This document shows, piece by piece, positions 9,812 through 29,230 of a DNA stretch of 44,692 bases. Source of the DNA: a virus; the IMG/VR virus record IMGVR_UViG_3300029263_000582. One strand, 5' to 3'. A model generated the notes under the pieces. That model saw only the letters and a program-made list of their open reading frames with translations, was not told the DNA's origin and did not search any database. Position 1 is the first letter of the stretch. The number at the start of each line of letters is the position of its first letter. The translations under genes were made by a program, and so were the position numbers.

Positions 9812-9851
9812 ATAAGCTACCCTACAGGGTGGTATCTAAGAGGTGCTTACA

Positions 9852-10187
9852 ATGAAGCGTAAACATTATGATGTAATCATAGCATGGGCTAATGGTGCTG
9901 AGGTGGAAGCCTACTCGACAGGCTCAGGTATCTGGGTTAACTGCCCGCACCCTAGTTTCTTTGAGTACATGCAGTACCGTATCAAGCCGCGTACGTTCAC
10001 TGAGCGTGCTTGGTATCCTGTTACTTTAAAGACAGGGCTTAAGGTTGTAGCTCAGTACACTAAAGGTACGTTCGTTATGCTTCTACCTGACTGTGGTGCA
10101 GTATGCTGGATGGATGCTAGTGATATACCTACTATCGGTGAGGAGATAACAGCGGCTAGTTGGGGGGAAGTATGCAAGCAACAGTAG
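9852..10187 (+). CDS. Hypothetical protein
   Basis: ORF in the track from 9843 (GTG). I prefer the ATG at 9852, which is 8 nt after the TAAGAGG RBS. Confidence 0.65.
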   Translation: MKRKHYDVIIAWANGAEVEAYSTGSGIWVNCPHPSFFEYMQYRIKPRTFTERAWYPVTLKTGLKVVAQYTKGTFVMLLPDCGAVCWMDASDIPTIGEEITAASWGEVCKQQ

Positions 10188-10333
10188 AAGACGTGCTTCT
10201 AATGCTCGTCGTAGTAGCCTTACTGGCTGTACTTATTGTATCGGTAGGGGCAGGTGGTTGGGTACAAGATTATGAAAGAGAGTACGAGAGTCGTACGTCT
10301 AATGATTCTAAAGATAAAGGGGATAAACAATGA
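10172..10333 (+). CDS. Hypothetical 53-aa single-TM protein (not in track)
   Basis: Hand translation: MQATVEDVLLMLVVVALLAVLIVSVGAGGWVQDYEREYESRTSNDSKDKGDKQ. Its stop overlaps the next start (ATGATG). Confidence 0.45.
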   Translation: MQATVEDVLLMLVVVALLAVLIVSVGAGGWVQDYEREYESRTSNDSKDKGDKQ

Positions 10334-10899
10334 TGTTAACACAAGGCGTTTTAATTGTACTCCTAGTAGCAGTAGCTCTAGTATTAGCAGCGTGTGCAGT
10401 ACTAACGTTCGTTAGGTTCAGCCTTAATGCTAGTAAGTGGGAGGGGTTCTGGACTGTAAGCAGTATGCTTAGTGCATTACGTATTATTAGTACGTACACT
10501 GGGAGGTTCAGTTCAGGCGGAAAAGAGTACACAGTACAGCCTTATGATGGCAGGTTCGTTGTTAAGGCAGGAGATGGAGGTGTAGAGTTCTACAATCATA
10601 TCAGCGGTATAAGCTACCACTGGAGCCACGGCCACATTAATCAATGTACTAAGTTCCGTACTAAAGAGGAAGCCGAAGAGGAACTTGCTAAGAGTGTTAG
10701 CCTGTCTCCTAAGGCTAAGGTAGGTGATGCTAAGCACTTAATGATGTTGTTACCTATAGCAGCAGTACTTGATGTAATCTGGTACTTGTTCTGCATGTCA
10801 CCAGTAGCTGCTGTATCAGTAGTAAGTACGTTCGTACTAACGTTCAGTACACGTTGGTTATCTGGTAAGCTGTCTGATACAGTCAGTAAGTCTAAGTAG
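10330..10899 (+). CDS. Membrane protein (TM segments at both ends)
   Basis: 189 aa. N-terminal TM LIVLLVAVALVLAACAVL. C-terminal hydrophobic pair LLPIAAVLDVIWYLF and AAVSVVSTFVLTF. Confidence 0.7.
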   Translation: MMLTQGVLIVLLVAVALVLAACAVLTFVRFSLNASKWEGFWTVSSMLSALRIISTYTGRFSSGGKEYTVQPYDGRFVVKAGDGGVEFYNHISGISYHWSHGHINQCTKFRTKEEAEEELAKSVSLSPKAKVGDAKHLMMLLPIAAVLDVIWYLFCMSPVAAVSVVSTFVLTFSTRWLSGKLSDTVSKSK

Positions 10900-11107
10900 A
10901 GGTAAGCAGCTATTCATTACGATGCTTACGTTAGTAAGCTTATCCGTTCTGTCAGTAGTAGCTAAGTACGTACTACTTTCTTTATTCATTTTACTTATTA
11001 CTTATTACTTCTTTCATCTCTTGTGAGCATATCTTATATAAGTTTTACGAAAGTCTCTTTATCTTCTAGCAGATTTCTAAGAGATTTCTAAATACCCTCT
11101 AGTATTG

Positions 11108-11136
11108 TATATAGTGAGGGCTAAGAATGTTTGCAA
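11108..11136 (-). promoter_or_regulatory. Candidate antisense (minus-strand) promoter sharing a palindromic -35
   Basis: On the minus strand: GTATTTGCC-TTGCAA (11131-11136), 17-nt spacer, TATATA (11108-11113). The upstream context GTATT(T)GCCTTGCAA matches the late promoter at 7307. Confidence 0.35.
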
Positions 11137-11158
11137 GGCAAATACTTTAATATATATT
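11131..11158 (+). promoter_or_regulatory. Sigma70-like middle promoter
   Basis: TTGCAA (11131-11136), 16-nt spacer, TATATT (11153-11158). Confidence 0.45.
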
Positions 11159-11172
11159 TTATTGTCATCCTA

Positions 11173-11201
11173 TTGACACGGCTAATGGCCGTAGTTCATA
11201 A
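11173..11201 (+). promoter_or_regulatory. Sigma70-like promoter
   Basis: TTGACA (11173-11178), 17-nt spacer, TCATAA (11196-11201). The AAGGAGG RBS and ATG at 11219 follow. Confidence 0.4.
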
Positions 11202-11218
11202 GGGATTAAGGAGGCTTT

Positions 11219-12064
11219 ATGCCTATAGTTAAATTTAGTAACGGTCAAACAGAAGACGGGGGTTGCTTCGGATTCTTTGGTAGGCTTGATGATTACTCTA
11301 CAGAAGAATCTTCTGTCTGGCAGCTAGCTAATGAATTAAAAGAGACAACCTGTATCGTACACCCATTCAGTAAATGGACAGGGGATTACTTTAACAACGA
11401 AGCCCTTGGCTACCTAACATGGCTCTTTACTGAGTCACCTTACCGTGATGTGTTTAGCAGTACACCTGAGGAAGCTATCCAAGAAGGGCACTGTAAGATT
11501 AACCTAGACGTTTGTAACCAGACCCTTATACTTGGGCTATCTCACCTGAGAAAGTCCGATGGTGAGCTTCACAGGGCGTGGAATGCTATGCCTGAAAGTT
11601 TGAACGGAGGTCTTAAGGTTATACTGTGCGGTGCATTGCACTCACATGCTAGTAGTACAGATTCTAAATTAGGTGCAGGGTACGGAGATAACACTGCGAC
11701 TGTCTTCCGTAGGTTCAAGGGTGATACCCTGTCAGCTTGGCTTCAAGGTAATACTATGAGGCACGAATCTTACATGACACTAGGCGGGTATCATGTAGCA
11801 GAGAGCGACGAAGACGAGGCCTGCTGTAACGTATCGTTCTGTGACCGTTACCTTGAAGCCTATGATGGTACAGGTGAAGACTTAGAAGACGTACTAGCTG
11901 AGTGTATCAGTACAACATGGCGTACTCGTGAGTTCAAGGGTATGTTCTTCGACGGTCATGTATCAGTATGTGAAGTAACACCTGAACAGTTAGTTAACCA
12001 AGCGGTTAGTGCATTAGAAGCAAGCGAGGACTTCAAGGTGTGTAAGGAGTTACTATGGAAGTAA
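11219..12064 (+). CDS. Hypothetical protein
   Basis: 281-aa ORF with a strong AAGGAGG RBS. No family recognised. Confidence 0.75.
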   Translation: MPIVKFSNGQTEDGGCFGFFGRLDDYSTEESSVWQLANELKETTCIVHPFSKWTGDYFNNEALGYLTWLFTESPYRDVFSSTPEEAIQEGHCKINLDVCNQTLILGLSHLRKSDGELHRAWNAMPESLNGGLKVILCGALHSHASSTDSKLGAGYGDNTATVFRRFKGDTLSAWLQGNTMRHESYMTLGGYHVAESDEDEACCNVSFCDRYLEAYDGTGEDLEDVLAECISTTWRTREFKGMFFDGHVSVCEVTPEQLVNQAVSALEASEDFKVCKELLWK

Positions 12065-12234
12065 TCATTACATTAGCGGCAGCTATTATCTTTATGATAA
12101 CGATAACCGTGTACATAGTACGTCTAGTATGGGAAGTCTTAACAGACATAGCCGCTAGGTGTGGCCCTTGGTACGCTAGCTTAGCGTTATTATTATTCTT
12201 ATCAGCAGTAGCATTTATATCTCATACGACTTAG
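12055..12234 (+). CDS. Hypothetical 59-aa two-TM protein (not in track)
   Basis: Hand translation: MEVIITLAAAIIFMITITVYIVRLVWEVLTDIAARCGPWYASLALLLFLSAVAFISHTT. It overlaps the previous stop. Confidence 0.5.
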   Translation: MEVIITLAAAIIFMITITVYIVRLVWEVLTDIAARCGPWYASLALLLFLSAVAFISHTT

Positions 12235-12242
12235 GAAACAAC

Positions 12243-12653
12243 ATGGATTTATCTAATCAATTAGTTAATAACAACGTAGCTGTATACGGTACACTCCGTG
12301 CAGGCTGCGGTAATCATCATATCTTAGAAGGGTTAACGTTCAAGCGTGATGTTATCCAAGGCTTTAAGATGTACGACCTCGGCGGCTTCCCTTATGTGGT
12401 ACATACAGGAGACCATGACGACAGCATAGCAGTAGAGGTGTACGAAGTACCTGACTATGACACAGCCCGTCGTCTTGACGGCCTTGAAGGTTATCACCAT
12501 ACACAGGGGTTCACTGGATTCTATAACCGAATCAAGGTACGTACTGCACTAGGAACAGAGGTGTACCTGTACGTATTCCCTCAGCATGAAGGGGAAGACG
12601 AGATAGAGTCAGGTGATTGGGTGTACCATACTAACCAGCGAGGTTGGCTGTAA
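12243..12653 (+). CDS. Gamma-glutamyl cyclotransferase-like (GGCT/AIG2 family) protein
   Basis: VAVYGTLRAGCGNHH, GFPYVV, VEVYEV and LDGLEGY match the YGTL...G / LD.LEG signature of the family. Confidence 0.8.
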   Translation: MDLSNQLVNNNVAVYGTLRAGCGNHHILEGLTFKRDVIQGFKMYDLGGFPYVVHTGDHDDSIAVEVYEVPDYDTARRLDGLEGYHHTQGFTGFYNRIKVRTALGTEVYLYVFPQHEGEDEIESGDWVYHTNQRGWL

Positions 12654-12685
12654 GCTAACGTAATCAACGATTAATATTAATAGTA

Positions 12686-12708
12686 GGGTAGCTTAGGTGC
12701 TGCCCTTT
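12686..12708 (+). terminator. Weak terminator-like hairpin
   Basis: GGGTAGC (12686-12692) pairs with GCTGCCC (12699-12705), including one G.T pair, followed by only TTT. Confidence 0.3.
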
Positions 12709-12752
12709 AAAGCTCTTAGCGTGGACTACAGAGCGTCTGACAGGAGATTATC

Positions 12753-12929
12753 ATGGGATTAGTAGACCAACATGTTAAACAGGTAAAGATAGATGCAGTC
12801 GAGACTACGCTTTTAGCCTTCCTTAACTTCACTGGAGGGGATAGCGGCTTCCTTGCTGACTTCGAGCACAGCGATGAGTACAAGAAAGCTATCAACGAAT
12901 TAGGTTTAACTAAAGAGGACTTCTCTTAA
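12753..12929 (+). CDS. Hypothetical 58-aa acidic protein (not in track)
   Basis: Hand translation: MGLVDQHVKQVKIDAVETTLLAFLNFTGGDSGFLADFEHSDEYKKAINELGLTKEDFS. AGGAG RBS at 12742. TAATG overlap with the amidotransferase start. Confidence 0.55.
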   Translation: MGLVDQHVKQVKIDAVETTLLAFLNFTGGDSGFLADFEHSDEYKKAINELGLTKEDFS

Positions 12930-14182
12930 TGTGTGGATTAGTAGCAGCGTTCGGTAATCTGAACGCAACAAGTAAGAAAATATTCGAGCAGCTTTTACAG
13001 GTTGATGTTATCCGTGGTAAGCACAGCACTGGTGTGTTCGGTGACGGTGGTGCAACGTACAAGAAAGCTTTAAGTGCGACTGAGTTCCTTGAGCTTAGTA
13101 AAGCTAAGAGTATTATCAGTGACAGTACGTCTATGTTAGTAGGTCATAACCGCCATGCTACTGTAGGGGCAGTGAACGACGTTAATGCCCACCCGTTTAC
13201 TCACGGTGACATAACCCTAGTGCATAACGGCACGTTAACTGACCAAGACTTACTACCTGATAGCAAGGACTTCCTTGTTGACTCAGAGAATATCTGTCAT
13301 GCAGTTAACAAGCTAGGTGCTAAGGCTGCCTTCGAGGTAACAGAGGGAGCTTATGCATGTATCTGGCACGATGCATCTAACGATACACTTAGTGTAGTAC
13401 GCAACGCTGAACGTCCTCTCTGGTACGTTCAAGTACAGGGCGGGCCTATGTACATAGGTTCAGAGCGTGAGATGTTGCTCTGGATTCTTATGAAGAACAA
13501 GATAACATTCAGTGGTGACTACAAGGATTACTTCATAGAAGTCCCTGAGTGTGAGATAATAACCTTTAAGAAACAAGGCACTAGGGTTAAAGAGGTAAGT
13601 CGTACACCCTTTGATGAGTGCCTCTCGTGGAAAGCATGGGGTCGTTACGACGGCTATGGTTCCTACAGTACCAAGGTTAAGACTGTTGACCCTATCGAGA
13701 AGTACCTAGGTCTTAAGGTTAAAGACCCTGCTAAGGTACTGGTGCAGGCTAATACCTTCAAGGCTTACAGTACACATAACCCTAACTCTTTAGGTTATGC
13801 TCTAGGTCGTATGACTTCTTACCCTTATAACCGATGCAAGGTTTATAACTTAACGGAGCCAGAAGAGGACTCTTACTTTAACGTAGAGGTAGGCGCTCTT
13901 GATTTATTCCATATAAACAAGGACGTTAACCCTGAGCTTAACCCTCAGAAGTTAATCGTTAGTTGTTATAACCCTGTTAAGTGCGAGGAAGAAGAACACT
14001 CTTGCATTAACTGCGGTACTAGTATCACTGAACACACGGTTAACCTTACTAATGTACGTGAGGTAGACGGTGAACTTATCTGTGAGAACTGCTGGTCTAA
14101 CGACAGCACAGTAGTTGATATGTTCCCTATTAATGAACCAGTTAATATTATTAAATCATTAGAAGACTTGGAGGCTGTATGA
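12929..14182 (+). CDS. Class-II (Ntn) glutamine amidotransferase-domain protein with C-terminal zinc ribbon
   Basis: MCGLVAAFG (catalytic Cys2), GHNRHATVG, NAHPF and VHNGTL are GATase type 2 motifs. The C-terminus carries CINCG...CENCW. Confidence 0.8.
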   Translation: MCGLVAAFGNLNATSKKIFEQLLQVDVIRGKHSTGVFGDGGATYKKALSATEFLELSKAKSIISDSTSMLVGHNRHATVGAVNDVNAHPFTHGDITLVHNGTLTDQDLLPDSKDFLVDSENICHAVNKLGAKAAFEVTEGAYACIWHDASNDTLSVVRNAERPLWYVQVQGGPMYIGSEREMLLWILMKNKITFSGDYKDYFIEVPECEIITFKKQGTRVKEVSRTPFDECLSWKAWGRYDGYGSYSTKVKTVDPIEKYLGLKVKDPAKVLVQANTFKAYSTHNPNSLGYALGRMTSYPYNRCKVYNLTEPEEDSYFNVEVGALDLFHINKDVNPELNPQKLIVSCYNPVKCEEEEHSCINCGTSITEHTVNLTNVREVDGELICENCWSNDSTVVDMFPINEPVNIIKSLEDLEAV

Positions 14183-15378
14183 CAGCACGTTACGAAGAGA
14201 AGAAAGCAATCGAAGACGTACAGGTAGGTGACTTAGTACGTATCAATGACACCTGCTGGGAACCTAATAAAGTATACCTAGAAGGTAGAGGTGTGCCTCA
14301 GGTGTTCCCTGTTGTGGGGTTAAGCGGTCGCTCATCTCTAGAGGCTGCAACTACGGATAATGGAGGTAGACAGGGTATCTTTAAGAGCTACCTTGAGCAC
14401 TACCCTCGTCGTATCATAGAGAGTAACAATGACTTCGAGGTAGGTGACCGTGTTGTTATTAGGGAGGACTCTCGTTACTACGGTATAAATCGTCTTAACC
14501 CTGATAACTCAGTGCAGGGTGAGATAAGTTACGTAGGGGGTCACCTGATTGTGCAGTGGGGTAACATAGGGACTAACAGTTATCAGTACCACGACCTTGA
14601 GTTAGTGCAGTACATACAATCTGCACCTGAGAAAGAGAACAAGACAGAAGCTATCGATGGTATCTTATTCGGCTCAGACCTTGAGCTGTTCGTAGTAGAT
14701 ACACGTACTGATAAGGTTGTCCCTGCTGGTATGCTAGTACCGGGTACTAAAGATACACCTTTCAAGATGAAGACAGGTACAGTACACCCTGATGGTCTAG
14801 CAGTAGAGGTAGGCTGTGACCCTGCTAGTACGTGGACTGAACTGAACAAGAGCCTTGAGGCTATCCTCGCTGAGGTTAAGGCTGAGTTCTTCCCTGAGGA
14901 ATACTACGTGTACTCAGAGAAGTCAGTAGCTACTAAGGAGTGTATACAAGACTTCGAGAAGCATAGAGCTGAGCACCCTGAGTGGTTCATCTCAGGCTGT
15001 GCCCCTGAATTAGAGGCAGGTAAACTTACTTACAATAACGGCACACGTAGTGATGTTAACCCTAAGGAGAAGTTACGCTGCAAGGATAAGTTCTTTGTAG
15101 GTATGCACCTACACTTAGGCTTTACTGAGTGGGATAACACATGCTTTACTCGTATAGATGCTGGTGCTTTAGTAGAGAAAGCTCACGGTAAGGTATGGTT
15201 ACGTGATGAACAGGTAGGTAACGAACGTCAGCAGTACTACGGTGGTCGTAAGTGTTTCCGTATGAAACCTTATGGTGTAGAAGACCGATCTCTTGCAGGT
15301 CATACGTTCCTTAAGGATAAGCAAGTTATAGCTAAGCTAGCGTACGCTTATCAGTGCCTTATCAAGGAGGCTTTATGA
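14179..15378 (+). CDS. Carboxylate-amine (COOH-NH2) ligase, phage type 2-like, with two N-terminal SH3-like repeats
   Basis: GSDLELFVVD, VHPDGLAVEVGCDP and GMHLHLGF resemble the acidic metal-binding strands of GCS2-type ligases. The N-terminus has two repeats, VQVGDLVRIND and FEVGDRVVIRED. The family call is from memory. Confidence 0.55.
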   Translation: MTARYEEKKAIEDVQVGDLVRINDTCWEPNKVYLEGRGVPQVFPVVGLSGRSSLEAATTDNGGRQGIFKSYLEHYPRRIIESNNDFEVGDRVVIREDSRYYGINRLNPDNSVQGEISYVGGHLIVQWGNIGTNSYQYHDLELVQYIQSAPEKENKTEAIDGILFGSDLELFVVDTRTDKVVPAGMLVPGTKDTPFKMKTGTVHPDGLAVEVGCDPASTWTELNKSLEAILAEVKAEFFPEEYYVYSEKSVATKECIQDFEKHRAEHPEWFISGCAPELEAGKLTYNNGTRSDVNPKEKLRCKDKFFVGMHLHLGFTEWDNTCFTRIDAGALVEKAHGKVWLRDEQVGNERQQYYGGRKCFRMKPYGVEDRSLAGHTFLKDKQVIAKLAYAYQCLIKEAL

Positions 15379-15662
15379 TTGAGATAAGACGTGAGGGTTG
15401 CAGGGGAGGGCGCTTCAACGTTGGTAACTACGGATGGGAGGGAGGGGCTAGCGATGTTGTCTACCTCCCCGATTCCTCTCTGACACGAGAGGGGGAGAGG
15501 GTTGTGCGTATCTCAGGTAAGTATTTAGGGAGCCACTTCGGTAACGGACCTAGCTACGAAATGCTAAAGACTCACGTTCGTATAGTACCTGAACTCCCTT
15601 TAAACCAAGTAATAGGTATCCCCTCATTAAAGGGTATGATATTCGGAGACGATGATGCGTAG
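15375..15662 (+). CDS. Small acidic-tailed protein, paralogue 1 of 3 (MIE...YLPD...PELPLNQVIGIPSLKG.IF)
   Basis: I prefer the ATG at 15375 (AAGGAGG RBS, ATGA overlap with the upstream stop). 95 aa ending in PELPLNQVIGIPSLKGMIFGDDDA. Confidence 0.75.
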   Translation: MIEIRREGCRGGRFNVGNYGWEGGASDVVYLPDSSLTREGERVVRISGKYLGSHFGNGPSYEMLKTHVRIVPELPLNQVIGIPSLKGMIFGDDDA

Positions 15663-16149
15663 AGTACAAGAGATTAACGAGTACGATTACACGCAGTACT
15701 ACCGAGGTACGTACGTCATGAACGACGACTCAGGTCAGATGCTTCTATGTAAGGTACAAGAAGTAGAAGATGAAGAGTTCGTCCTTGAGGACAAGGACTG
15801 TACTTACAGGACAGCAGCAGATACCTGCTATGTCCAGCTACCTGACACAGGTTACTACTCAGGTGTGTTCATTAGCAGCTCAGCACACAGAACTCATAAG
15901 AAAGGGTTACAGTTATCTTATGAGCAGGCAAGAGCGTACCGTAGGTATTTACTAACAGGGGCTGGCTTTAGCCCTTTCTATAAAGAACGTGGTTACGTGT
16001 TCTATAAGTCAGAGATAGTAGGCGTAACGTACAAGAACAATGTCGTTATCTTAAGTGAAGAGATAGCTAAGATGTATTCAGAAGAGTACAAGGTTGAGGT
16101 GCAAGATGAAGAAGAAATTAAGCGAGCTGTTCAGGATACCGCAGCATAA
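15652..16149 (+). CDS. Hypothetical acidic protein
   Basis: 165-aa ORF overlapping both neighbours. No family recognised. Confidence 0.65.
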   Translation: MMRRVQEINEYDYTQYYRGTYVMNDDSGQMLLCKVQEVEDEEFVLEDKDCTYRTAADTCYVQLPDTGYYSGVFISSSAHRTHKKGLQLSYEQARAYRRYLLTGAGFSPFYKERGYVFYKSEIVGVTYKNNVVILSEEIAKMYSEEYKVEVQDEEEIKRAVQDTAA

Positions 16150-17335
16150 AGGTTGCTACCTAGGCATAGAGGTTGAGCTAGAGAACGTGACACAAGGTGT
16201 TACTACTTACGACGAGGTGAAGTACCATAAGCTTACGAAGAACTTAGTACGCTGTATCAAGGACGGTTCCTTACGTGACAACGGTGCGGAGTTCATCTTT
16301 AATCAACCATTAATGTACGGCTCACGTGAGTTCGAGCAGAGTATTGATTACATAGAGCAGGTAGGTACTAAGGTACAGGCAGTAACATCTCCTCGTACGT
16401 CAACTCACTACCACCTTAACGTTACTGACTTAACAGTACAAGAGTTACGTAACCTGCTGTATGTATCGTTACTGATAGAGCCTGTGCTTATGAAGTACTG
16501 CTCGTCACACCGACAGCATAACAGGTTCTGTTTACCTACATGGCAGTCAGATGTTATCAGCCCTATGAAGCTGTGCTTGCAATGGGCGGAGCAAGGTAAC
16601 GCTGACGATGCTGCGTACTACAGTGTTGACCGTACTAAGTACAGTAGTATCAGTCTGCATAGGTTACAAGACTTAGGTACTGTAGAGTACAGAATGTTTG
16701 ACGGTACTTATAACAGTGCAGTTCATCGTAACGTAGGTAAGCTTCTTAACTTCTTACGTCGTATCAGTACTCGACGTACACTAGAAGAGATTAAGGAATC
16801 CAAGGTTCAGGGACGACTACGTACTGTACTTACATCAGTACTACGTACTGCATTCGGTACTAAGATTAGTACTAAAGAACTACAAGAACTCCTTGATTCA
16901 GGGACAGTACAGGCTAATGACCTAGTACGAGCTGACATTAAACGAGGAACTATACAAGAACTTAAGAGGAAGATAGATGATTTATCTAACAAGTTGGAAC
17001 AACGGGAAGACAGCGAGGGAACTGAGCCGACGATTGAGTCCTCTGAAAGGCCGACTCCTACGCCCAGAAGGTTCACGGCTACGCCGACTAGCTTCTCAGG
17101 GACAGCACCTAGTAATCAATCTAGGACGTTCAGCGATTTACAGTACGAGTATGACCTTGAACAAACCAGACTCCGTCAAGAACGCTCAGAACAAACTACT
17201 AACATTCCAATGCCTAGCGGATTCACAAGAGACCCTGATACCGGAGCACTACGTTACACTGGAGACAGCGTTCCAAGCAATGATAGACAACCCGACGTGG
17301 AAGATAGTCCAACGAACCCTGCTCCGGGGTTCTGA
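16106..17335 (+). CDS. Amidoligase_2-type carboxylate-amine ligase with long low-complexity tail
   Basis: LGIEVELE, DGSLRDNGAEFIFNQP and STHYHLNV are amidoligase motifs. ATG at 16106 after a GAGGTG RBS. The last ~120 codons are S/T/P/R/E-rich and overlap the ATP-grasp gene in another frame. Confidence 0.7.
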   Translation: MKKKLSELFRIPQHKGCYLGIEVELENVTQGVTTYDEVKYHKLTKNLVRCIKDGSLRDNGAEFIFNQPLMYGSREFEQSIDYIEQVGTKVQAVTSPRTSTHYHLNVTDLTVQELRNLLYVSLLIEPVLMKYCSSHRQHNRFCLPTWQSDVISPMKLCLQWAEQGNADDAAYYSVDRTKYSSISLHRLQDLGTVEYRMFDGTYNSAVHRNVGKLLNFLRRISTRRTLEEIKESKVQGRLRTVLTSVLRTAFGTKISTKELQELLDSGTVQANDLVRADIKRGTIQELKRKIDDLSNKLEQREDSEGTEPTIESSERPTPTPRRFTATPTSFSGTAPSNQSRTFSDLQYEYDLEQTRLRQERSEQTTNIPMPSGFTRDPDTGALRYTGDSVPSNDRQPDVEDSPTNPAPGF

Positions 17336-17783
17336 AGGGAAGGGTATCAGTATTCATGATGACCCTAGTACACTACAGCCCGCACCTTTGTACGTTCGGT
17401 ACATCCCTAAGACTCAGGAGTACAGAGTACATGTTGTTAAGGGCAAGGTGATTGACGTACAACGTAAGGCACGTAGCTCTGATACACCTGACGAGGATGT
17501 TAACTGGCAGGTACGTAATCATAAGAACGGCTTTATCTTTATGAGGGAAGGGGTAACACCTGACTCAGTACCTGAACAGGTAATACTTAACAGCTTAGAA
17601 AGTATGCGTCTTCTAGGTCTTGACTTCGGTGCAGTAGATATTATCTGGAACCAACAGCACGATAAGGCGTACGTCCTTGAGGTTAATACCTCACCTGGTA
17701 TGACAGGGACAACACTTGATAAGTACTGCGAGGCTTTCCAAGCAGTACATGATAACACAGAGATAGGAGGTTGGTATGTTTAA
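16977..17783 (+). CDS. RimK-like ATP-grasp ligase
   Basis: AAGAGGA RBS with a stop just before the ATG. N-terminal pre-ATP-grasp region (VINLGRS, LNKPDSVKNAQNKLLTF), then EYRVHVVKGKVIDVQRK, NHKNGFIF, LDFGAVDIIWN and VLEVNTSPGM. Confidence 0.8.
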   Translation: MIYLTSWNNGKTARELSRRLSPLKGRLLRPEGSRLRRLASQGQHLVINLGRSAIYSTSMTLNKPDSVKNAQNKLLTFQCLADSQETLIPEHYVTLETAFQAMIDNPTWKIVQRTLLRGSEGKGISIHDDPSTLQPAPLYVRYIPKTQEYRVHVVKGKVIDVQRKARSSDTPDEDVNWQVRNHKNGFIFMREGVTPDSVPEQVILNSLESMRLLGLDFGAVDIIWNQQHDKAYVLEVNTSPGMTGTTLDKYCEAFQAVHDNTEIGGWYV

Positions 17784-18195
17784 GTTCAGGGTAGGCGACA
17801 AGGTACGTAAGATTTCTAATGGCACAAGTAATTACCCGATAGGCTACGAGGGTGTTGTAAATAAAGCAGGCGTTAACTGTCTCTACGTAGATGGGAAGGG
17901 AGCTAGCACCCGAGCAGTCTATTGGGAACTGGTAGAAGACAAAGCTAAGTACCCTAACGGTAAGCACCCACACCATGATATAATCCTTGAGTACGCTAAG
18001 GGTGCTGAGCTAGAGTTCTTTAGTACCTCAGTGAATGCATGGCGAAATGTCCTATCCCCTGCTTTTGCGAAGGACACCCTGTACCGAGTCAAGCCTCAGC
18101 AAGACCCTGCTGTACAGGCTGCTAAGAAGAAGATAGAACAGGCGGAGCAGATGCTTCGTGAAGCTAACGATGAACTGGATAGGCTAGGACTATGA
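17776..18195 (+). CDS. Hypothetical protein with N-terminal SH3-like VGD.VR.I repeat
   Basis: 139 aa. FRVGDKVRKISN resembles the repeats at the N-terminus of ORF 14179. Confidence 0.65.
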   Translation: MFKFRVGDKVRKISNGTSNYPIGYEGVVNKAGVNCLYVDGKGASTRAVYWELVEDKAKYPNGKHPHHDIILEYAKGAELEFFSTSVNAWRNVLSPAFAKDTLYRVKPQQDPAVQAAKKKIEQAEQMLREANDELDRLGL

Positions 18196-18383
18196 ATAAA
18201 GGATCAACAGAAGCAAAGAGCTACTCCCTGTGCAGGATATTCAACAGAGAATCGGATGACGTAATAGATAGGTTCGTTATAGATTCTTACTTTAAGGACA
18301 GCGTTAGGAAGAAACATAATACCAGCACAACTTATGTTAGGTTCACAACTGCACGTAATGCACGTACTAAGGATATCTTTTGA
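18192..18383 (+). CDS. Hypothetical protein
   Basis: 63-aa ORF, translationally coupled on both sides. Confidence 0.5.
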   Translation: MNKGSTEAKSYSLCRIFNRESDDVIDRFVIDSYFKDSVRKKHNTSTTYVRFTTARNARTKDIF

Positions 18384-18601
18384 TTATATACACATCACTT
18401 ACTTGCAAGCCATGCAAGGAACTTAAAGAGGAGCTCAAGGGGTACGACGTACAACCTGAGTACGTAACCTTACCTAACCCAGAGGTTGACCATGCTGCAC
18501 TAGGTATACGTACTGTACCTACTATGATTCATGGTAACTACTTCAGGTCGGGGTACGATAATATTATAGGATACGTACAAGAGAACTACGAGGAGGTATG
18601 A
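18380..18601 (+). CDS. Glutaredoxin/thioredoxin-fold CxxC protein
   Basis: TTG start (TTGA overlap, AAGGA RBS). IIYTSLTCKPCKELKEEL followed by VPTMI is typical of a small glutaredoxin-like fold. Confidence 0.6.
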   Translation: MIIYTSLTCKPCKELKEELKGYDVQPEYVTLPNPEVDHAALGIRTVPTMIHGNYFRSGYDNIIGYVQENYEEV

Positions 18602-18675
18602 TGTTCGAGAACCTTTATGATAAACACCCACCACCTAAGAAGAAACCTGTTCAACCTAAACCTAAGGAGGACTAA
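18598..18675 (+). CDS. Possible 25-aa coupling micro-ORF
   Basis: MMFENLYDKHPPPKKKPVQPKPKED. It bridges the gap exactly, with ATGA and TAATG overlaps. It may only serve translational coupling. Confidence 0.25.
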   Translation: MMFENLYDKHPPPKKKPVQPKPKED

Positions 18676-19615
18676 TGGCTGGTGTACAGATAGATAGTAT
18701 ACCTCATTCCTGTGGAGGTAGTACTAAGGTCTTCGATGACCAAGGTAAGATAACAGGGTACTGCTTCAGCTGTGGTACGTTCGACCCTGACCCTTATAAA
18801 GATAAGCCCGAAGGGTACAAGCCACCTGAACCTAAGCGTCAGTCAGCTGAGGATATACAGGAAAAGATTAATGAAATCAAAGAGCTAACAACTGTTGATG
18901 ACACAGCCCGTAAGCTAGGAGCTAAGTCCCTTGGTTACTTCGGTATCAAGACTCAGCTCAGTGAGTACGACGGCTCAACAATCACAGCTAAGTTCTACCC
19001 TTATACAACTGACGGTGTGCTGACTGCATGGAAGTGCAAGACTCACGACAAGAAGTTCTTTAGTATAGGAGACATGAAGAACTGTGACCCATTCGGTTGG
19101 GAGCAGGCGATGCGTTCCGATAACTACACCCTGTTCATAACAGAGGGAGAGGATGACGCGGCTGCTTTACTTAAAGCCTTGATGCCTAACTGGAACAAGG
19201 ATAAACCTCCTGCTATTATCAGTACATCCTCTGGTGCAACAGGGGTTAAGAGTATTACTCGACGTGCTGATACTATTAACCGTAGGTTCAAGCAGGTAGT
19301 ACTGGTCTTCGACCAAGATGATGCAGGTGCAGCAGGGGCAAGGAAGGTAGCAGGTCTCTTAGAGAACTGCAAGGCAGCATCCTTTGAACTCAAGGACGCT
19401 AACGACATGGTCAAGGCAGGGCGAGGCGACGAGCTAGCTAAGGCTGTGATGTACGAAGGTAAGCCTATGGTATCAGGTAAGTGCGTCCGCTCTTCTGATG
19501 CATGGCACTTAGCTGAGGCTAAGGTAGAGTGGGGGCTTGACTGGCCTTGGCCTACGATGACAGAGAAGACACGAGGACGACGACGAGGGGAGGTGTATTA
19601 CTTCGGCTCCGGTGT
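18675..19615 (+). CDS. Primase-helicase (T7 gp4-like), exon 1
   Basis: Zinc-finger cysteines (HSCGG...CFSCG). TOPRIM motifs FITEGEDDAAAL and VLVFDQDDAG. The ORF runs into the helicase P-loop (EVYYFGSGV) and then hits a stop inside the intron. Confidence 0.85.
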
Positions 19616-19926
19616 TTGTAATTAAGCATCATTCAACCGTGAGGTTGTCTAAAGAACTACGTGAACTCAGGGGAACTCTAGAACAGACAATCCTGAGCGA
19701 AGCCTTGAGATTAGTTTTATGTAGGAAAACAGTAAGACACCTTACACATAAGTAAAGGTTCTAATCTAAGGAACGTGCAACGACTATCCCGTAAGGGAGT
19801 ACACTCAAGTGAGTGGAAGCGCGTAGCCCTCAGAAATGAGGTGATGATATAGTCTAGTCTGCATGGGGACATGCAGCAGTTCATAAGAGAACGGGCTAGG
19901 AGTAACGACCCTAGTCGAATGTAACG
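19616..19926 (+). ncRNA. Group I intron 1 (ORF-less, resembles the T4 td intron, 311 nt)
   Basis: P1: 19611-GGUGUUU pairs with AAGCAUC-19630, with a U19615.G19626 wobble. GGGGAAC...AGACAAUCC core. P7: GACUAU (19782-87) with AUAGUC (19849-54) inside GAUAUAGUC. CUGCAUG-GGGA-CAUGCAG hairpin (19859-76). Terminal G at 19926. Stops in all frames. Confidence 0.8.
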
Positions 19927-20449
19927 AAAAATGGGTAAGAGTGTAGTAGTTGACCAGATGGCTGCGTTCTTTGCAGCTACTCAGGATACACCTGTTATGC
20001 TAGTCAAGCCAGAAGAGTCAGTACCTAATACCCTTAAGCGTCTAGCTGGTAAGGCTGCACGTAAGGTGCTATGGGACCCGAAGGTTCCTTATGAGAAAGA
20101 GGACTTCGATAAAGGTAAAGCTATCATCGGCAGTAACGCTATAGTCTTTGACTCCTATCAGGAGATACGGTGGGCTGACGTTAAGAAAGAGATACGTACT
20201 AACGTAGAGGTATGCGGTGTAAAGGATGTGTTCCTTGACCCACTGACCTGTTTCACAGTAGGTATGCCTATGTCAGTAGCTAACGAAGAGCTTATCAGTA
20301 TAGCCTCAGAGATAGCTACTATGGCTAAGGAGCTGGACTTCACAGCTTACTTGTTCTGTCACCTTAACGCCCCTCAGTCAGGGCTACCTCACGAACGTGG
20401 TGGTGCAGTACAGAGTCAACAGTTCAGTGGCTCACGAGCTATGATGCGT
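19927..20449 (+). CDS. Primase-helicase, exon 2
   Basis: The junction gives ...FGSGV-KMGKSVVVDQ (P-loop). Walker B-like DVFLDPLT, then FCHLN and FSGSRAMMR. It ends on U20449. Confidence 0.85.
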
Positions 20450-20682
20450 CAAAGGCGCATGTAAAACCAATCTAATTCAGGGAAACCCTATCAGAAATGA
20501 GGGCAATCCTGAGCGAAGCCTTAACAGGAACGTGCAGAGACTATCGAAAGCAGAAGGTTAACACCTGAGAAGTGAGTAGAGTAGGGACGACAGGAGTTAT
20601 CCCGAAACGGTTGGGCTACGAGAGTAGCGTGATATAGTCCGATACTTGTAGTAATACAAGACGTAAGGATACTAACATATTG
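20450..20682 (+). ncRNA. Group I intron 2 (ORF-less, 233 nt)
   Basis: P1: 20444-AUGCGU pairs with GCGCAU-20460, with a U20449.G20455 wobble. It shares the CAAUCCUGAGCGAAGCCUU core with intron 1. P7: GACUAU (20539-44) with AUAGUC (20634-39). GCUAC-GAGA-GUAGC and CUUGUA-GUAA-UACAAG tetraloop hairpins. Terminal G at 20682. Confidence 0.8.
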
Positions 20683-20874
20683 TTTTGCCATCAGATGTGG
20701 GGACTAGAGGGTAACAAAGACCCTGACTTACCTGATGAACTACGTAACTGCCGTGACTTAGTGCTCCTAGAAGACCGTAACTTCGGCGAGTCAGGTCGTA
20801 TTAAGATGCAGTACCATTCAACTACAGGTTGCCTTGAAGAGATGCAGCCTAACTTTGGAGAGCACGATGATTGA
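20683..20874 (+). CDS. Primase-helicase, exon 3
   Basis: The junction SGSRAMMR-FCHQMWGLEGNKD aligns from memory with T7 gp4 [21 protein letters not shown]. Exons total 1656 nt, giving 551 aa in frame. Confidence 0.8.
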   Translation, partial: FCHQMWGLEGNKDPDLPDELRNCRDLVLLEDRNFGESGRIKMQYHSTTGCLEEMQPNFGEHDD

Positions 20875-21124
20875 ACTACTAGACGAGGACGACTACGGCT
20901 ATGAAGAAGGAGTTAGCTTCCCTATATACTTACCAGACTGTGCTCTACGAGCAGAGGGGGATGTCTTTATTGAGGTCGCAGGAGAGGCGCTTGGGGAGTT
21001 CTTCGAGAGAGAAGATACTTACCCCTTCCGTGTAAGAAGCGCTCGTATAGTACCAGAGCTACCTCTTAACCAAGTAATAGGCATCCCCTCGTTAAAGGGT
21101 AGGATATTTGGAGAACAAGAATGA
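20867..21124 (+). CDS. Small acidic-tailed protein, paralogue 2 of 3
   Basis: ATG at 20867 inside ATGATTGA, which overlaps the helicase stop. MIELLDEDDYGYEEGVSFPIYLPDC...PELPLNQVIGIPSLKGRIFGEQE. Confidence 0.75.
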   Translation: MIELLDEDDYGYEEGVSFPIYLPDCALRAEGDVFIEVAGEALGEFFEREDTYPFRVRSARIVPELPLNQVIGIPSLKGRIFGEQE

Positions 21125-21783: not shown

Positions 21784-22030
21784 GCTTAAGAGTAATCAGT
21801 CTTGGGGGTTCGAGGTTGGAACTAAATTCCCTGTGTACCTCCCTGATTGTGCAGTAGTAGAGAAGGATAGCAGGATGTCTTATATATTAGGAGAGTTCTT
21901 AGGCAGATGCTTCGCACCGACAGAGGTGTACGGTTTTACAAACGACCAGCTAAGAGTTGCCCCTGAACTGCCCCTTAACCACGTCATCGGCATACCATCG
22001 TTAGAAGGTAAGATATTCGAGGAGGATTAA
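21776..22030 (+). CDS. Small acidic-tailed protein, paralogue 3 of 3
   Basis: ATGATTGA overlap with the upstream stop. MIELKSNQSWGFEVGTKFPVYLPDC...PELPLNHVIGIPSLEGKIFEED. Confidence 0.75.
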   Translation: MIELKSNQSWGFEVGTKFPVYLPDCAVVEKDSRMSYILGEFLGRCFAPTEVYGFTNDQLRVAPELPLNHVIGIPSLEGKIFEED

Positions 22031-22326
22031 TGAATTGCGATTTAATAACCGAGTATTCCACGGGAAGTAGAAAGATACTATTCCAAAGGCTTGTAATGTA
22101 TAACAAGGTTGTTGCTGAGTACCAAGGAACTTGGTGCGAGCTGTTCAGCACAACCTCTTACAAACGGCTTAAGTGTACTGAAGAGAAACTTAAAATGGAT
22201 ATAACAAAACGACTGACTGCTATTTACAACGCTCCTGTTTATGTAGAGTTCAGGGGGTCTAGGTACAAGGACGACGTGTTACTTAAGAGGAAACAAAAGT
22301 TCTTAGTAATTAAGAAGGAGAGCTAA
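22030..22326 (+). CDS. Hypothetical basic protein
   Basis: 98-aa ORF, A+T-richer than its neighbours, coupled on both sides (TAATG overlaps). Confidence 0.6.
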   Translation: MNCDLITEYSTGSRKILFQRLVMYNKVVAEYQGTWCELFSTTSYKRLKCTEEKLKMDITKRLTAIYNAPVYVEFRGSRYKDDVLLKRKQKFLVIKKES

Positions 22327-28548: not shown

Positions 28549-28634
28549 TGGAGTACTTAGGTTATCTTCTATTCCCTAGCTACGAGAGCTACGGACGACA
28601 ACTAACACTAACTGGGAGAGTTTACTGCTTATGA
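28548..28634 (+). CDS. Possible 28-aa coupling micro-ORF
   Basis: MEYLGYLLFPSYESYGRQLTLTGRVYCL. TAATG and ATGA overlaps bridge the gap exactly. Confidence 0.25.
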   Translation: MEYLGYLLFPSYESYGRQLTLTGRVYCL

Positions 28635-29230
28635 GCGCAATGAAGTTCGATACCGATAAACCTATGATGGACTTAGTAAGGCCTGAGTTCGTACAGGGAG
28701 TAGCATCTGTCCTTACATTCGGGGCACAGAAGTACGCCGCTCATAACTGGACTAAGGGATTAGACTACTCAAGACTGATAGCCGCACTTAAGCGACACCT
28801 AGCTGAGATAGAGAAAGGGAATGACTTCGATGAGGAGTCAGGACTTAGACATGTGTACCACGTAGGGTGTTGCACTATGTTCTTAGCCTGCTTTCAAGAA
28901 TGGAATAGAGAAGAGCTTGATGATAGATTAAAATTAGGAGATGTACTTGGTATACATAGTAATGTTCGTGGTAAGCTTTCTGATGATAGCACTCAAGGCG
29001 TTCCAGCAACTAAACGTAATGCACGACAAGAAATTATTGGTAGTACCGACGAGCTTTCTGATGGCGGTGTGCGAGTTCAGTACAATAAGTCTGGTTCTGA
29101 CAACCCAGAGCTGGCTCCTCGTCATTCCGCTAGGATTCGGAGGAGCACTCGGGTGTCTTACGTCGATGCACCTTCACAAGAAGTTCAGGACGAAGTAAGA
29201 AAGACTATTAATTTTATACTAGATAATTAG
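28631..29230 (+). CDS. dATP/dGTP diphosphohydrolase-N-domain (DUF5664)-like protein with atypical C-terminal extension
   Basis: KFDTDKPMMDLVRPEFVQGVASVLTFGAQKYAAHNWTKGLDYSRLIAALKRHL..DEESGLRHVYHVGCCTMFL matches my memory of that family. The last ~100 aa are low-complexity and overlap a TM ORF in another frame. Confidence 0.55.
   Translation: MSAMKFDTDKPMMDLVRPEFVQGVASVLTFGAQKYAAHNWTKGLDYSRLIAALKRHLAEIEKGNDFDEESGLRHVYHVGCCTMFLACFQEWNREELDDRLKLGDVLGIHSNVRGKLSDDSTQGVPATKRNARQEIIGSTDELSDGGVRVQYNKSGSDNPELAPRHSARIRRSTRVSYVDAPSQEVQDEVRKTINFILDN
28941..29198 (+). CDS. Embedded alternative-frame membrane ORF (85 aa, 2-3 TM)
   Basis: MYLVYIVMFVVSFLMIALKAF...LLVVPTSFLMAVCEFSTISLVL...WLLVIPLGFGGALGCL...HLHKKFRTK. 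The hydrophobic segments and basic tail look protein-like. However, GGAG abuts the ATG with no spacing. An alternative start is at 28962. Confidence 0.3.
   Translation: MYLVYIVMFVVSFLMIALKAFQQLNVMHDKKLLVVPTSFLMAVCEFSTISLVLTTQSWLLVIPLGFGGALGCLTSMHLHKKFRTK

Follow-up and report, generated by a model that had tools for sequence, protein, structure and literature searches.

A recurrent phage amide-ligase cassette in a RIO-1-like virus genome and the possible nature of its product

An analysis was conducted of IMG/VR virus record IMGVR_UViG_3300029263_000582, a stretch of 44,692 nucleotides that is referred to here as the window. Positions 12243-18601 contain an amide-ligase cassette, an unbroken run of open reading frames (ORFs) on the + strand with overlaps of 4 to 359 nt. 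From its sequence, this can be recognised as the phage amidoligase cassette already described from RIO-1, PSA-HP1, phiEco32, and LUZ24; it is not novel. What is added here is a sharper parts list, made up of five core genes, a gamma-glutamyl-cleaving enzyme, and an upstream gene that is specific to the lineage type. Added to this is the recurrent association of the cassette with a gamma-glutamyl cyclotransferase (GGCT) or Peptidase_C26 (C26) enzyme, pointing to a free gamma-glutamyl-amine intermediate. The product may be a small amidated peptide or amino-acid conjugate, made through small gamma-glutamyl amide chemistry, a reading that is put forward tentatively and at slightly less than an even chance.

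Identity of the cassette

Across 91% of its length, the region from 12243 to 18601 has 85% nucleotide identity to Pseudoalteromonas phage RIO-1 (Zobellviridae, Melvirus). The whole window is collinear with this phage, the cassette being upstream of the primase/helicase, sigma factor, and DNA polymerase genes. In the RIO-1 annotation, gp8-gp16 are, in turn, a gamma-glutamyl cyclotransferase, a glutamine amidotransferase, a COOH-NH2 ligase, two hypotheticals, an amidoligase, an ATP-grasp enzyme, a hypothetical, and a glutaredoxin. In the RIO-1-like podovirus PSA-HP1, a seven-gene 'peptidoglycan modification cassette' is formed by ORFs 40-47 (Duhaime et al. 2017, PMC5498523), with ORF40 as GGCT, ORF42 as GATase, ORF43 as 'gamma-glutamyl amidoligase', ORF46 as the second amidoligase, and ORF47 as ATP-grasp. 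The order and count of the ORFs in the window match these. Because gp8-gp16 are annotated and ORFs 40-47 are published, the cassette can be regarded as described for its own lineage. The same pathway is listed for phiEco32, 7-11, PA11, tf, MR299-2, LUZ24, PaP3, and CW02, and the literature trail given there leads to Hardies 2013 and Iyer 2009 (PMC5498523). To the extent that this trail conveys the earlier work, it bears out the remark in the initial annotation that Iyer, Aravind and colleagues had noted similar phage clusters in 2009.

The conserved genes are as follows; all of the ORFs and motifs quoted in the initial annotation are present, on the + strand.

11219-12064, + strand: 'UPZ', homologue of RIO-1 gp7, 281 aa, upstream of the start first noted for the cluster
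12243-12653, + strand: GGCT, AIG2/GGACT-like, 136 aa, with YGTLRAG and LDGLEGY
12929-14182, + strand: class-II (N-terminal nucleophile, Ntn) glutamine amidotransferase (GAT), 417 aa, with MCGLVAAFG, GHNRHATVG, and VHNGTL, and a C-terminal CxxC...CxxC
14179-15378, + strand: CNL, phiEco32-type COOH-NH2 ligase, 399 aa, with GSDLELFVVD, HPDGLAVEVG, and GMHLHLG
15652-16149, + strand: 'MID', phrog_4877 family, 165 aa, between the two glutamine synthetase (GS)-fold ligases
16094-17335, + strand: AMD, Amidoligase_2 (GS-fold) ligase, 413 aa, with LGIEVELE, DGSLRDNGAEFI, and STHYHLN
16977-17783, + strand: ATP-grasp amino-acid ligase, 268 aa, with EYRVHVV, FGAVDIIWN, and VLEVNTSPGM

Conservation and gene order

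At least 311 phage isolates with sequenced genomes carry the cassette, among them Pseudomonas LUZ24-like and E. coli phiEco32-like phages of relevance to therapy; metagenomic phages add thousands more. With the ATP-grasp protein as tblastn query, 311 phage records were identified, 120 of them for Pseudomonas, 94 for Escherichia, and 22 for Vibrio. Eight GenBank phages were compared: phiEco32, PaP3, O4 (PA11-like), VPp1, LAh_9, Proteus 3H10_20, Pantoea TacPo2, and a zobellvirus from an oyster metagenome. These span at least five taxa (Zobellviridae, Bruynoghevirus, Kuravirus, Lahexavirus, and Grimontviridae, plus unclassified phages), and in all eight the GAT, CNL, AMD, and ATP-grasp genes are in one same-strand block.

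In addition, 80 IMG/VR contigs were gathered with the ATP-grasp profile and scanned with hidden Markov models from the reference phages. Evaluable contigs, with 6.5 kb or more of sequence 5' of the ATP-grasp gene, numbered 47, and every one has GAT, CNL, and AMD with the ATP-grasp gene on one strand within 4.1-6.0 kb. The clustering of the four enzymes is far beyond chance. The co-occurrence across phages that had been proposed as a check on the initial annotation is thus found throughout both sets (8/8 and 47/47).

Two gene orders occur. In order A, [UPZ][C26/GGCT]-GAT-CNL-MID-AMD-ATPgrasp, are the window and most Zobellviridae-like contigs (36 loci). Order B, CNL-MID-AMD-GAT-ATPgrasp, usually followed by GGCT, is found in phiEco32, PaP3, LAh_9, Privateer-like phages, and TacPo2, and at 11 further loci.

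A motif-based scan with the ATP-grasp profile covered 185,579 prokaryotic species, with one genome each. Strong matches were confined to contigs of 46-54 kb from metagenome-assembled genomes (MAGs) and to short fragments, with none on long bacterial contigs; where a matching contig has sufficient flank, the whole cassette is present. The matching MAG contigs had been binned with Flavobacterium, Patescibacteria, and cyanobacteria. Where matches on large bacterial contigs occur, they are weak and consist of a lone ATP-grasp gene, without the other cassette genes. Within the reach of this motif-based scan, the full cassette is found only on phage-sized contigs.

This distribution bears on the suggestion that these are auxiliary metabolic genes, boosting nitrogen, glutamine, or glutathione-type metabolism or recycling gamma-glutamyl compounds and so feeding replication. 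Such a role has been suggested for Phage-ZRK32 (PMC10945688), and Duhaime et al. 2017 (PMC5498523) speak of 'host material recycling genes'. Together, the GAT, GS-fold ligases, GshB-like ATP-grasp, and GGCT are superficially like a gamma-glutamyl cycle. However, true auxiliary metabolic genes resemble those of the host, and the scans revealed no bacterial counterpart of this phage-borne cluster. No cassette protein reaches the cut-off of a housekeeping family (GlmS, PurF, GshB, RimK), MID and UPZ have no metabolic counterpart, and the ZRK32 claim was built on growth effects, not enzymology (PMC10945688). It is most improbable that the cassette serves simply to supplement host metabolism.

Its position, together with expression in related phages, places the cassette early in infection or close to replication. 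It is upstream of the primase/helicase and DNA polymerase genes in all nine reference genomes, either adjacent or 5-9 kb away. In the HP1 transcriptome the 'peptidoglycan modification' genes are on from the very start of infection (PMC7082346), and ATP-grasp, GATase, and YtfP are among the early products in the SU10 proteome (PMC4281155). Approximately 10% of a 45-kb genome is given over to a cassette that is reported to be switched on first.

The position upstream of replication genes would suit a modification of nucleic acids or the nucleotide pool, in which an amino-acid-derived group is placed on phage DNA, dNTPs, or RNA against restriction or other defences. Amidoligase and amidotransferase genes do co-occur with thymidine-hypermodification genes in viromes (PMC8989533), and the GAT has a zinc ribbon and a beta-domain. 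Yet the DNA of the cassette-bearing phage tf is cut by RsaI, HpaI, EcoRV, SmaI, and HaeIII, and has been cloned (PMC3517423). Genes for dUMP/dCMP hydroxymethylase, 5-HMUDK, aGPT-Pplase, TET/JBP, and DpdA are absent from the RIO-1 annotation and were not among 10 further window ORFs checked against Pfam, a check that did not take in every small ORF. The initial annotation had likewise noted no hydroxymethylase or TET/JBP gene, and these results agree with it. There are no tRNA genes in the window. Taken together, a nucleic-acid target is very unlikely.

One form of this idea is that the cassette puts an amino-acid or gamma-glutamyl adduct on the phage DNA or nucleotide pool, or else makes a small molecule that disarms defences. 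We regard this as a long shot. If true, it would account for the broad restriction-modification resistance reported for the phiEco32-like Gordonclarkvirinae, in which the cassette is likewise placed upstream of the replication genes. The BASEL authors, however, credit that resistance to a dCTP deaminase and a nucleotidyltransferase, both of which the window lacks.

The cassette proteins

Profile searches support a GGCT, a class-II GAT, two GS-fold ligases, an ATP-grasp enzyme, and a thioredoxin fold, so that the cluster of several ligases with a GATase and a GGCT stands as it was first annotated.

The GAT matches GATase_6 (2e-14) and phrog_4736 (7e-110). Its AlphaFold2 model, with a predicted local distance difference test (pLDDT) score of 82, has an Ntn domain (1-232) joined by a disordered linker to a beta-rich domain (~253-355), with a CxxC...CxxC zinc ribbon after it. 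In a Foldseek search of the PDB, the Ntn domain matched the GlmS N-domain (5e-13), PurF, AsnS, and EgtC (9e-10). R75, N100, G101, and D118 are invariant across 40 homologues, and Cys2 nearly so. The C-terminal part aligns only with orthologous phage GATases (GAP52, LAh_9, CW02), the Foldseek matches being mostly to the Ntn domain.

The GGCT matches Pfam GGACT (PF06094) at 1.5e-20 over the full profile and phrog_2520 at 1e-28. In sister Zobellviridae its position is taken by a Peptidase_C26 gamma-glutamyl hydrolase (Pfam 1e-16). At the 47 evaluable IMG/VR loci, C26 alone is present at 26, GGCT alone at 10, and both at 10, and the single locus with neither ends exactly where GGCT is expected. 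A gamma-glutamyl-cleaving enzyme, whether GGCT, C26, or both, is therefore an essentially universal companion of the cassette (46/47). Strict mutual exclusion of the two was considered and rejected, since both are present in CW02, Rhizobium RHph_N3_13/19, and Lbo-JY46, as well as at the 10 IMG/VR loci.

UPZ probably belongs to the GAT-first type of cassette; it lies outside the extent first annotated. Using a profile from four phages, it was found directly 5' of the C26/GGCT gene in 35 of the 40 loci of order A that have enough upstream sequence. One Ser and one Arg are invariant in the alignment, and a Cys and a His are near-invariant. The window protein has no Pfam, PHROG, or PDB match, and its homologues are in PHROGs lacking an assigned function. 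When UPZ was compared with the upstream proteins of phiEco32-type phages by hhalign, the probability was only 38%. Between UPZ and GGCT is a 59-aa ORF (12055-12234) in which two hydrophobic, membrane-spanning-like segments can be seen by eye. It has a RIO-1 counterpart (3e-19) and was not found in the other cassettes.

The ligase domain of CNL (residues ~160-399) matches phrog_3815 at 1e-61 over 160-397. Against Pfam PF14395 it scores E 0.021, below threshold, although phiEco32 gp86 itself reaches only 2e-8. When CNL is aligned with phiEco32 gp86 and seven others there are 24 invariant columns, and D167, E169, D205, E210, H310, H312, R350, R361, E368, and R370 are invariant in nine phages. The N-terminal extension of ~160 aa, with two SH3-like repeats, is lineage-specific and absent from the eight other aligned phages; the second repeat (83-150) matches phrog_18715, 11307, and 9469. 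The initial description of this ligase as 'GCS2-type' holds for the superfamily and fails for the family, the domain having no GCS2 match in Pfam even at E<=1. The literature likewise relates these ligases to glutamate-cysteine ligase (GCS) only within the GS/GCS superfamily.

AMD matches Pfam PF12224 (8e-10; 39.4 bits against a cut-off of 22) and phrog_2443 (6e-51). Its invariant residues are E26, E28, E30, D57, R61, E66, H105, H107, E129, R140, E198, and R200. The functional part is approximately residues 1-295 (to ~16976), and its last 359 nt are shared, in a different frame, with the ATP-grasp gene. In this overlap (16977-17335), comparison with RIO-1 gives 1 synonymous and 54 non-synonymous changes in the AMD frame and 35 and 22 in that of the ATP-grasp gene. 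There is also a 42-nt indel, and the AMD tail is of low complexity. Because nearly all of the changes are non-synonymous in the AMD frame, and because of the indel, the tail looks like unconstrained read-through rather than a selected overlapping gene. A real overlapping coding extension was rejected on this substitution pattern.

The ATP-grasp protein matches phrog_2599 at 1e-77. Among NCBIfam models its match to the RimK family (TIGR00768) is 9e-11, with 41.6 bits against a cut-off of 143.4, and there are others to MvdC (5e-10), MptN (2e-9), and, similarly, LysX, all far under the family cut-offs. The 'RimK-like' label of the initial annotation is thus right for the superfamily and too narrow for the family; kinship with RimK, MptN, and LysX appears to be at superfamily level only. 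Weak matches to the Ddl C-terminal domain are also present (19.3 bits against 24; PDB E ~0.08). Sequence searches of the PDB with the ATP-grasp protein and the amidoligase found nothing close. In nine phages K73, E148, R150, H152, K164, D221, E235, and N237 are invariant.

Since the expected catalytic residues are invariant or near-invariant across nine phage lineages, the four enzymes are likely to be active. No export signals were noticed in the cassette enzymes by eye, no predictor having been run. An accessory domain common to the C-terminal extensions of the ligases from different phages was sought with blastp, which found none.

The conserved MID was not recognised when the gene list was first drawn up, the enzymes in that list being right. 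It is a fifth core gene, encoding a stand-alone protein of ~165-205 aa. A protein profile from eight phages matches 15652-16149 at E 9e-8, its sole match in the window, and phrog_4877 matches at 6e-6, compared with 9e-78 for phiEco32 gp85. MID is between CNL and AMD in all nine reference cassettes, and it is detectable at 40 of the 47 evaluable IMG/VR loci. Clustering at 50% gives 4355 representatives of the family, and among the 150 listed all are 173-217 aa. The AlphaFold2 model has a poor score (pLDDT 52), and confidence is confined to a small beta-barrel at the N-terminus. The best Foldseek match had an E of 0.17, with generic Hfq/Tudor/SH3 barrels as neighbours, and a profile search of the PDB found only a non-significant match to PlyP35. 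Lys119 was considered as a conserved acceptor lysine and rejected, being invariant in 10 phages and not in an alignment of 24 sequences. The C-termini of MID vary among phages.

A conserved protein of non-enzymatic appearance suggests protein tagging of the RimK or Pup type. A host or phage protein would receive glutamate or a short peptide, MID would be the target, carrier, or adaptor, and the GAT and GGCT/C26 would be deamidases or tag-trimming enzymes. RimK is the nearest family of the ATP-grasp protein, PafA and Dop are GS-fold carboxylate-amine ligases, and small beta-barrel domains are fused to the ligases. Tagging is also the main theme of Iyer 2009, so far as it is cited in PMC4431377. 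On the other hand, no Pup-like small ORF ending in GGQ/GGE is found when the ORFs of 40 aa or more in 10000-21000 are translated, and there is no Pfam match to Pup_ligase or Pup. The behaviour of K119 in the wider family and the variable C-termini of MID do not fit an acceptor, and the RimK score is far under the cut-off. Furthermore, GGACT-type enzymes cut free gamma-glutamyl-amines, not protein-bound tags. Tagging, in any of these forms, is considered unlikely.

Lineage-specific neighbours

The remaining ORFs of the region are as follows.

15354-15662, + strand: small protein, 102 aa, phrog_29477 (2e-36), RIO-1 lineage only
Within 17776-18383, + strand: 139-aa ORF (phrog_13152) and 63-aa ORF, lineage-specific
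18380-18601, + strand: CxxC glutaredoxin/thioredoxin-fold protein, 73 aa, with CKPC

These four ORFs are lineage-specific and not part of the core. Among 89 loci, only the window and RIO-1 have the 15354-15662 family. The 139-aa ORF and the glutaredoxin adjoin the cassette in the same two phages only, with scattered matches like the 139-aa ORF elsewhere and one distant glutaredoxin match, in TacPo2. The glutaredoxin assignment itself is at the margin, with 22.8 bits against a Pfam cut-off of 22.9, phrog_22 at 2e-9, and weak NCBIfam matches; phrog_22 (glutaredoxin) is filed under nucleotide metabolism. The glutaredoxin had been counted as a cluster member, and it must be removed, not being conserved with the cassette outside the RIO-1 lineage. 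The extent of 12243-18601 first given to the cluster therefore holds for the core enzymes, all of which are inside it, and needs correction at both ends: 17776-18601 is not conserved with the cassette and the upstream member at 11219-12064 had been missed.

The phrog_29477 protein has a paralogue elsewhere in the window. The products of 15354-15662 (102 aa) and 20834-21124 (96 aa) are 51% identical and have in common a near-identical C-terminal motif of 25 aa, (R)IVPELPLNQVIGIPSLKG[MR]IFG, after which comes an acidic tail (GDDDA or GEQE). The corresponding 75-nt repeat (15575-15649 and 21040-21114) is 87% identical, with differences that are mostly synonymous. In RIO-1 the first paralogue is gp11, a more distant homologue (gp20) comes after the sigma-factor gene, and nothing corresponds to the copy between helicase and sigma factor. 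The shared conserved tail suggests a common binding partner.

A second shared domain links the C-terminal half of 17776-18195 (139 aa) with 9843-10187 (114 aa). It was found with blastp (1e-10), with 41% identity over 46 aa and the pattern AxGAE[VL]E...YR[IV]KP, and is thus a small domain that recurs within the early region.

Proposed function

The cassette could be a short cytoplasmic assembly line, driven by ATP, that acts upon a small molecule bearing an amine or carboxylate. Early in infection it would make a small amide or peptide with a gamma-glutamyl cap. One of the GS-fold ligases would join the gamma-carboxyl of free glutamate to an amine, as in GS, gamma-GCS, and PuuA, and the other GS-fold ligase and the ATP-grasp enzyme would add one or two more amide bonds. 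The GAT might use glutamine-derived ammonia to amidate an activated carboxylate (acyl-phosphate), or it might be an EgtC-like gamma-glutamyl amidohydrolase. GGCT or C26 would then take off or recycle the gamma-glutamyl group. The logic would be to protect, extend, and deprotect, as it is in putrescine utilisation (PuuA/PuuD) and butirosin synthesis (BtrJ/BtrG).

Amides of this kind are the only bonds that GGACT-type cyclotransferases and C26 hydrolases cut, since both require the alpha-amino and alpha-carboxyl of the gamma-glutamyl head group to be free. Therefore the pathway very probably passes through a gamma-Glu-NH-R intermediate. In addition, the characterised members of GS/GCS, PuuA, GshB/Ddl/MptN, GAT-II, GGACT, and C26 act mostly on small molecules.

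Several points weigh against a small-molecule product. RimK and PafA have the same folds, yet are able to modify proteins. Small beta-barrel (SH3/Tudor/Sm-like) domains are present at the N-termini of CNL and MID, and possibly also in the C-terminal extensions of the phiEco32-type ATP-grasp proteins. Such domains bind macromolecules more often than metabolites. A conserved MID that looks non-enzymatic fits better with a carrier, substrate, or scaffold than with a pure small-molecule pathway, and which ligase performs which step is pure inference. As the initial annotation had it, no product has been determined: the literature to 2025 holds no experiment identifying a substrate or product and still speaks of a 'putative peptidoglycan modification module' (PMC5498523, PMC10580990, PMC11945000). 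The IMG/VR sample, moreover, was picked by similarity to the ATP-grasp protein of the window, and its members are not phylogenetically independent.

The name of that module stands for a different proposal, that peptidoglycan precursors are modified. Unusual linkages would be made on cytoplasmic stem peptides, with amidation by the GAT, and the altered wall would block superinfection or ready the cell for lysis. It is generally known that stem peptides have a gamma-Glu linkage, that ATP-grasp enzymes make D-Ala-D-Ala, and that amidation by amidotransferases occurs (MurT/GatD, LtsA). Immediate-early expression suits superinfection exclusion, and the ATP-grasp protein has its weak Ddl C-terminal matches. 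The proposal comes from Iyer 2009 and Hardies 2013, as relayed by later papers, and has been repeated for PSA-HP1, OM43 phages, and LUZ24-like phages (PMC5498523, PMC10580990, PMC11945000).

However, profile searches of the cassette found no Mur-ligase, UDP-sugar-binding, glycosyltransferase, or lipid-II-related domain. The Ddl matches are sub-threshold, and the GAT is of class II, not the GatD-type class I. In the stem peptide L-Ala occupies the alpha-amine of gamma-D-Glu, and therefore GGCT/C26 would not act on it. The wall chemistries of the hosts are diverse (Gammaproteobacteria, and the Flavobacterium, Patescibacteria, and cyanobacteria of the MAG bins). It is doubtful that the wall is the target, and a small gamma-glutamyl amide remains the preferred reading of the cassette.

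This window is a rediscovery of an annotated and published cassette, predicted fifteen years ago, and it makes the product question no more tractable. The identity of the product would reveal phage-specific chemistry, be it a metabolite, a modification of wall, protein, or nucleic acid, or a means of counter-defence.

Other features of the window

Two group I introns (19606-19876 and 20380-20661; Rfam RF00028, 75.5 and 57.9 bits) split the primase/helicase gene, the exons of which are at ~18675-19625, 19931-20464, and 20680-20874. In RIO-1 this gene is annotated with one intron. Between the sigma-factor region and the DNA polymerase is a 98-aa ORF (22030-22326) with a match to DUF7175 (5e-16); by gene order, the RIO-1 annotation has no counterpart there.

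A 199-aa homologue of RIO-1 gp35, which is hypothetical in that phage, is at 28631-29230 and matches Pfam PF18909 'dATP/dGTP diphosphohydrolase, N-terminal' at 2.3e-28. RIO-1 gp26 is annotated as a MazG-like pyrophosphohydrolase, and no PurZ-like gene was seen. The gp35 homologue and the MazG-like gp26 hint at manipulation of the nucleotide pool. In Aeromonas phage LAh_9 (13407-16545), genes for ribose-phosphate pyrophosphokinase and nicotinamide phosphoribosyltransferase come directly after the cassette. This NAD-salvage pair belongs to a class that has been connected with counter-defence; its place beside the cassette may be no more than adjacency.

Comparison with known systems

The closest relatives of the cassette are RIO-1 gp8-gp16 and PSA-HP1 ORFs 40-47, which have the same genes in the same order, the ORF numbering fitting that of PSA-HP1. 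RIO-1 further shares with the window the small lineage-specific ORFs and the overlap of the amidoligase and ATP-grasp genes. It differs in lacking the extra paralogue of the 102-aa ORF (20834-21124), the cassettes themselves being functionally alike. PA11/O4, VPp1, and CW02-type Zobellviridae share the order of the window, UPZ-[gamma-Glu-cleaving enzyme]-GAT-CNL-MID-AMD-ATPgrasp, with Peptidase_C26 where the window has GGCT, and with both in CW02, the Rhizobium RHph phages, and Lbo-JY46.

The phiEco32-type cluster (gp77-gp88; LUZ24, PaP3, tf, 7-11, LAh_9, Privateer-like), the recognition of which is reportedly owed to Iyer et al. 2009, has the same five core families plus GGCT and is also upstream of the primase/helicase gene, by 1-9 kb. 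Its order is CNL-MID-AMD-GAT-ATPgrasp-GGCT, whereas that of the window is GGCT-GAT-CNL-MID-AMD-ATPgrasp. In place of the UPZ family it has the upstream genes phrog_13063 and phrog_13102, and its GAT and ATP-grasp proteins are longer than those of the window, with extra C-terminal domains.

Beyond the phages, RimK, LysX, MptN, and Pup-PafA/Dop have folds in common with the cassette (ATP-grasp; GS-fold) and produce amide-linked glutamate or a tag. In contrast to these, the cassette has no Pup-like gene and no PafA/Dop Pfam match, and its ATP-grasp protein is under the RimK cut-off. The ergothioneine enzymes EgtA and EgtC form a similar pairing, of a GCS-type gamma-glutamyl ligase and a stand-alone hydrolase with the class-II amidotransferase fold. 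Homologues of EgtB, EgtD, and EgtE are absent from the cassette, however, and its GAT scores 17.7 bits for the EgtC family against 218.65.

PuuA/PuuD and BtrJ/BtrG each combine an ATP-dependent gamma-glutamyl-amine ligase with a C26- or AIG2-type enzyme that removes the group, and the likeness to the phage cassette would be one of logic only. Unlike the Puu and butirosin systems, to which it does not belong at the sequence level, the cassette has no oxidase, acyl carrier protein, or pyridoxal phosphate enzyme; it has instead three ligases, a class-II amidotransferase, and two uncharacterised proteins.

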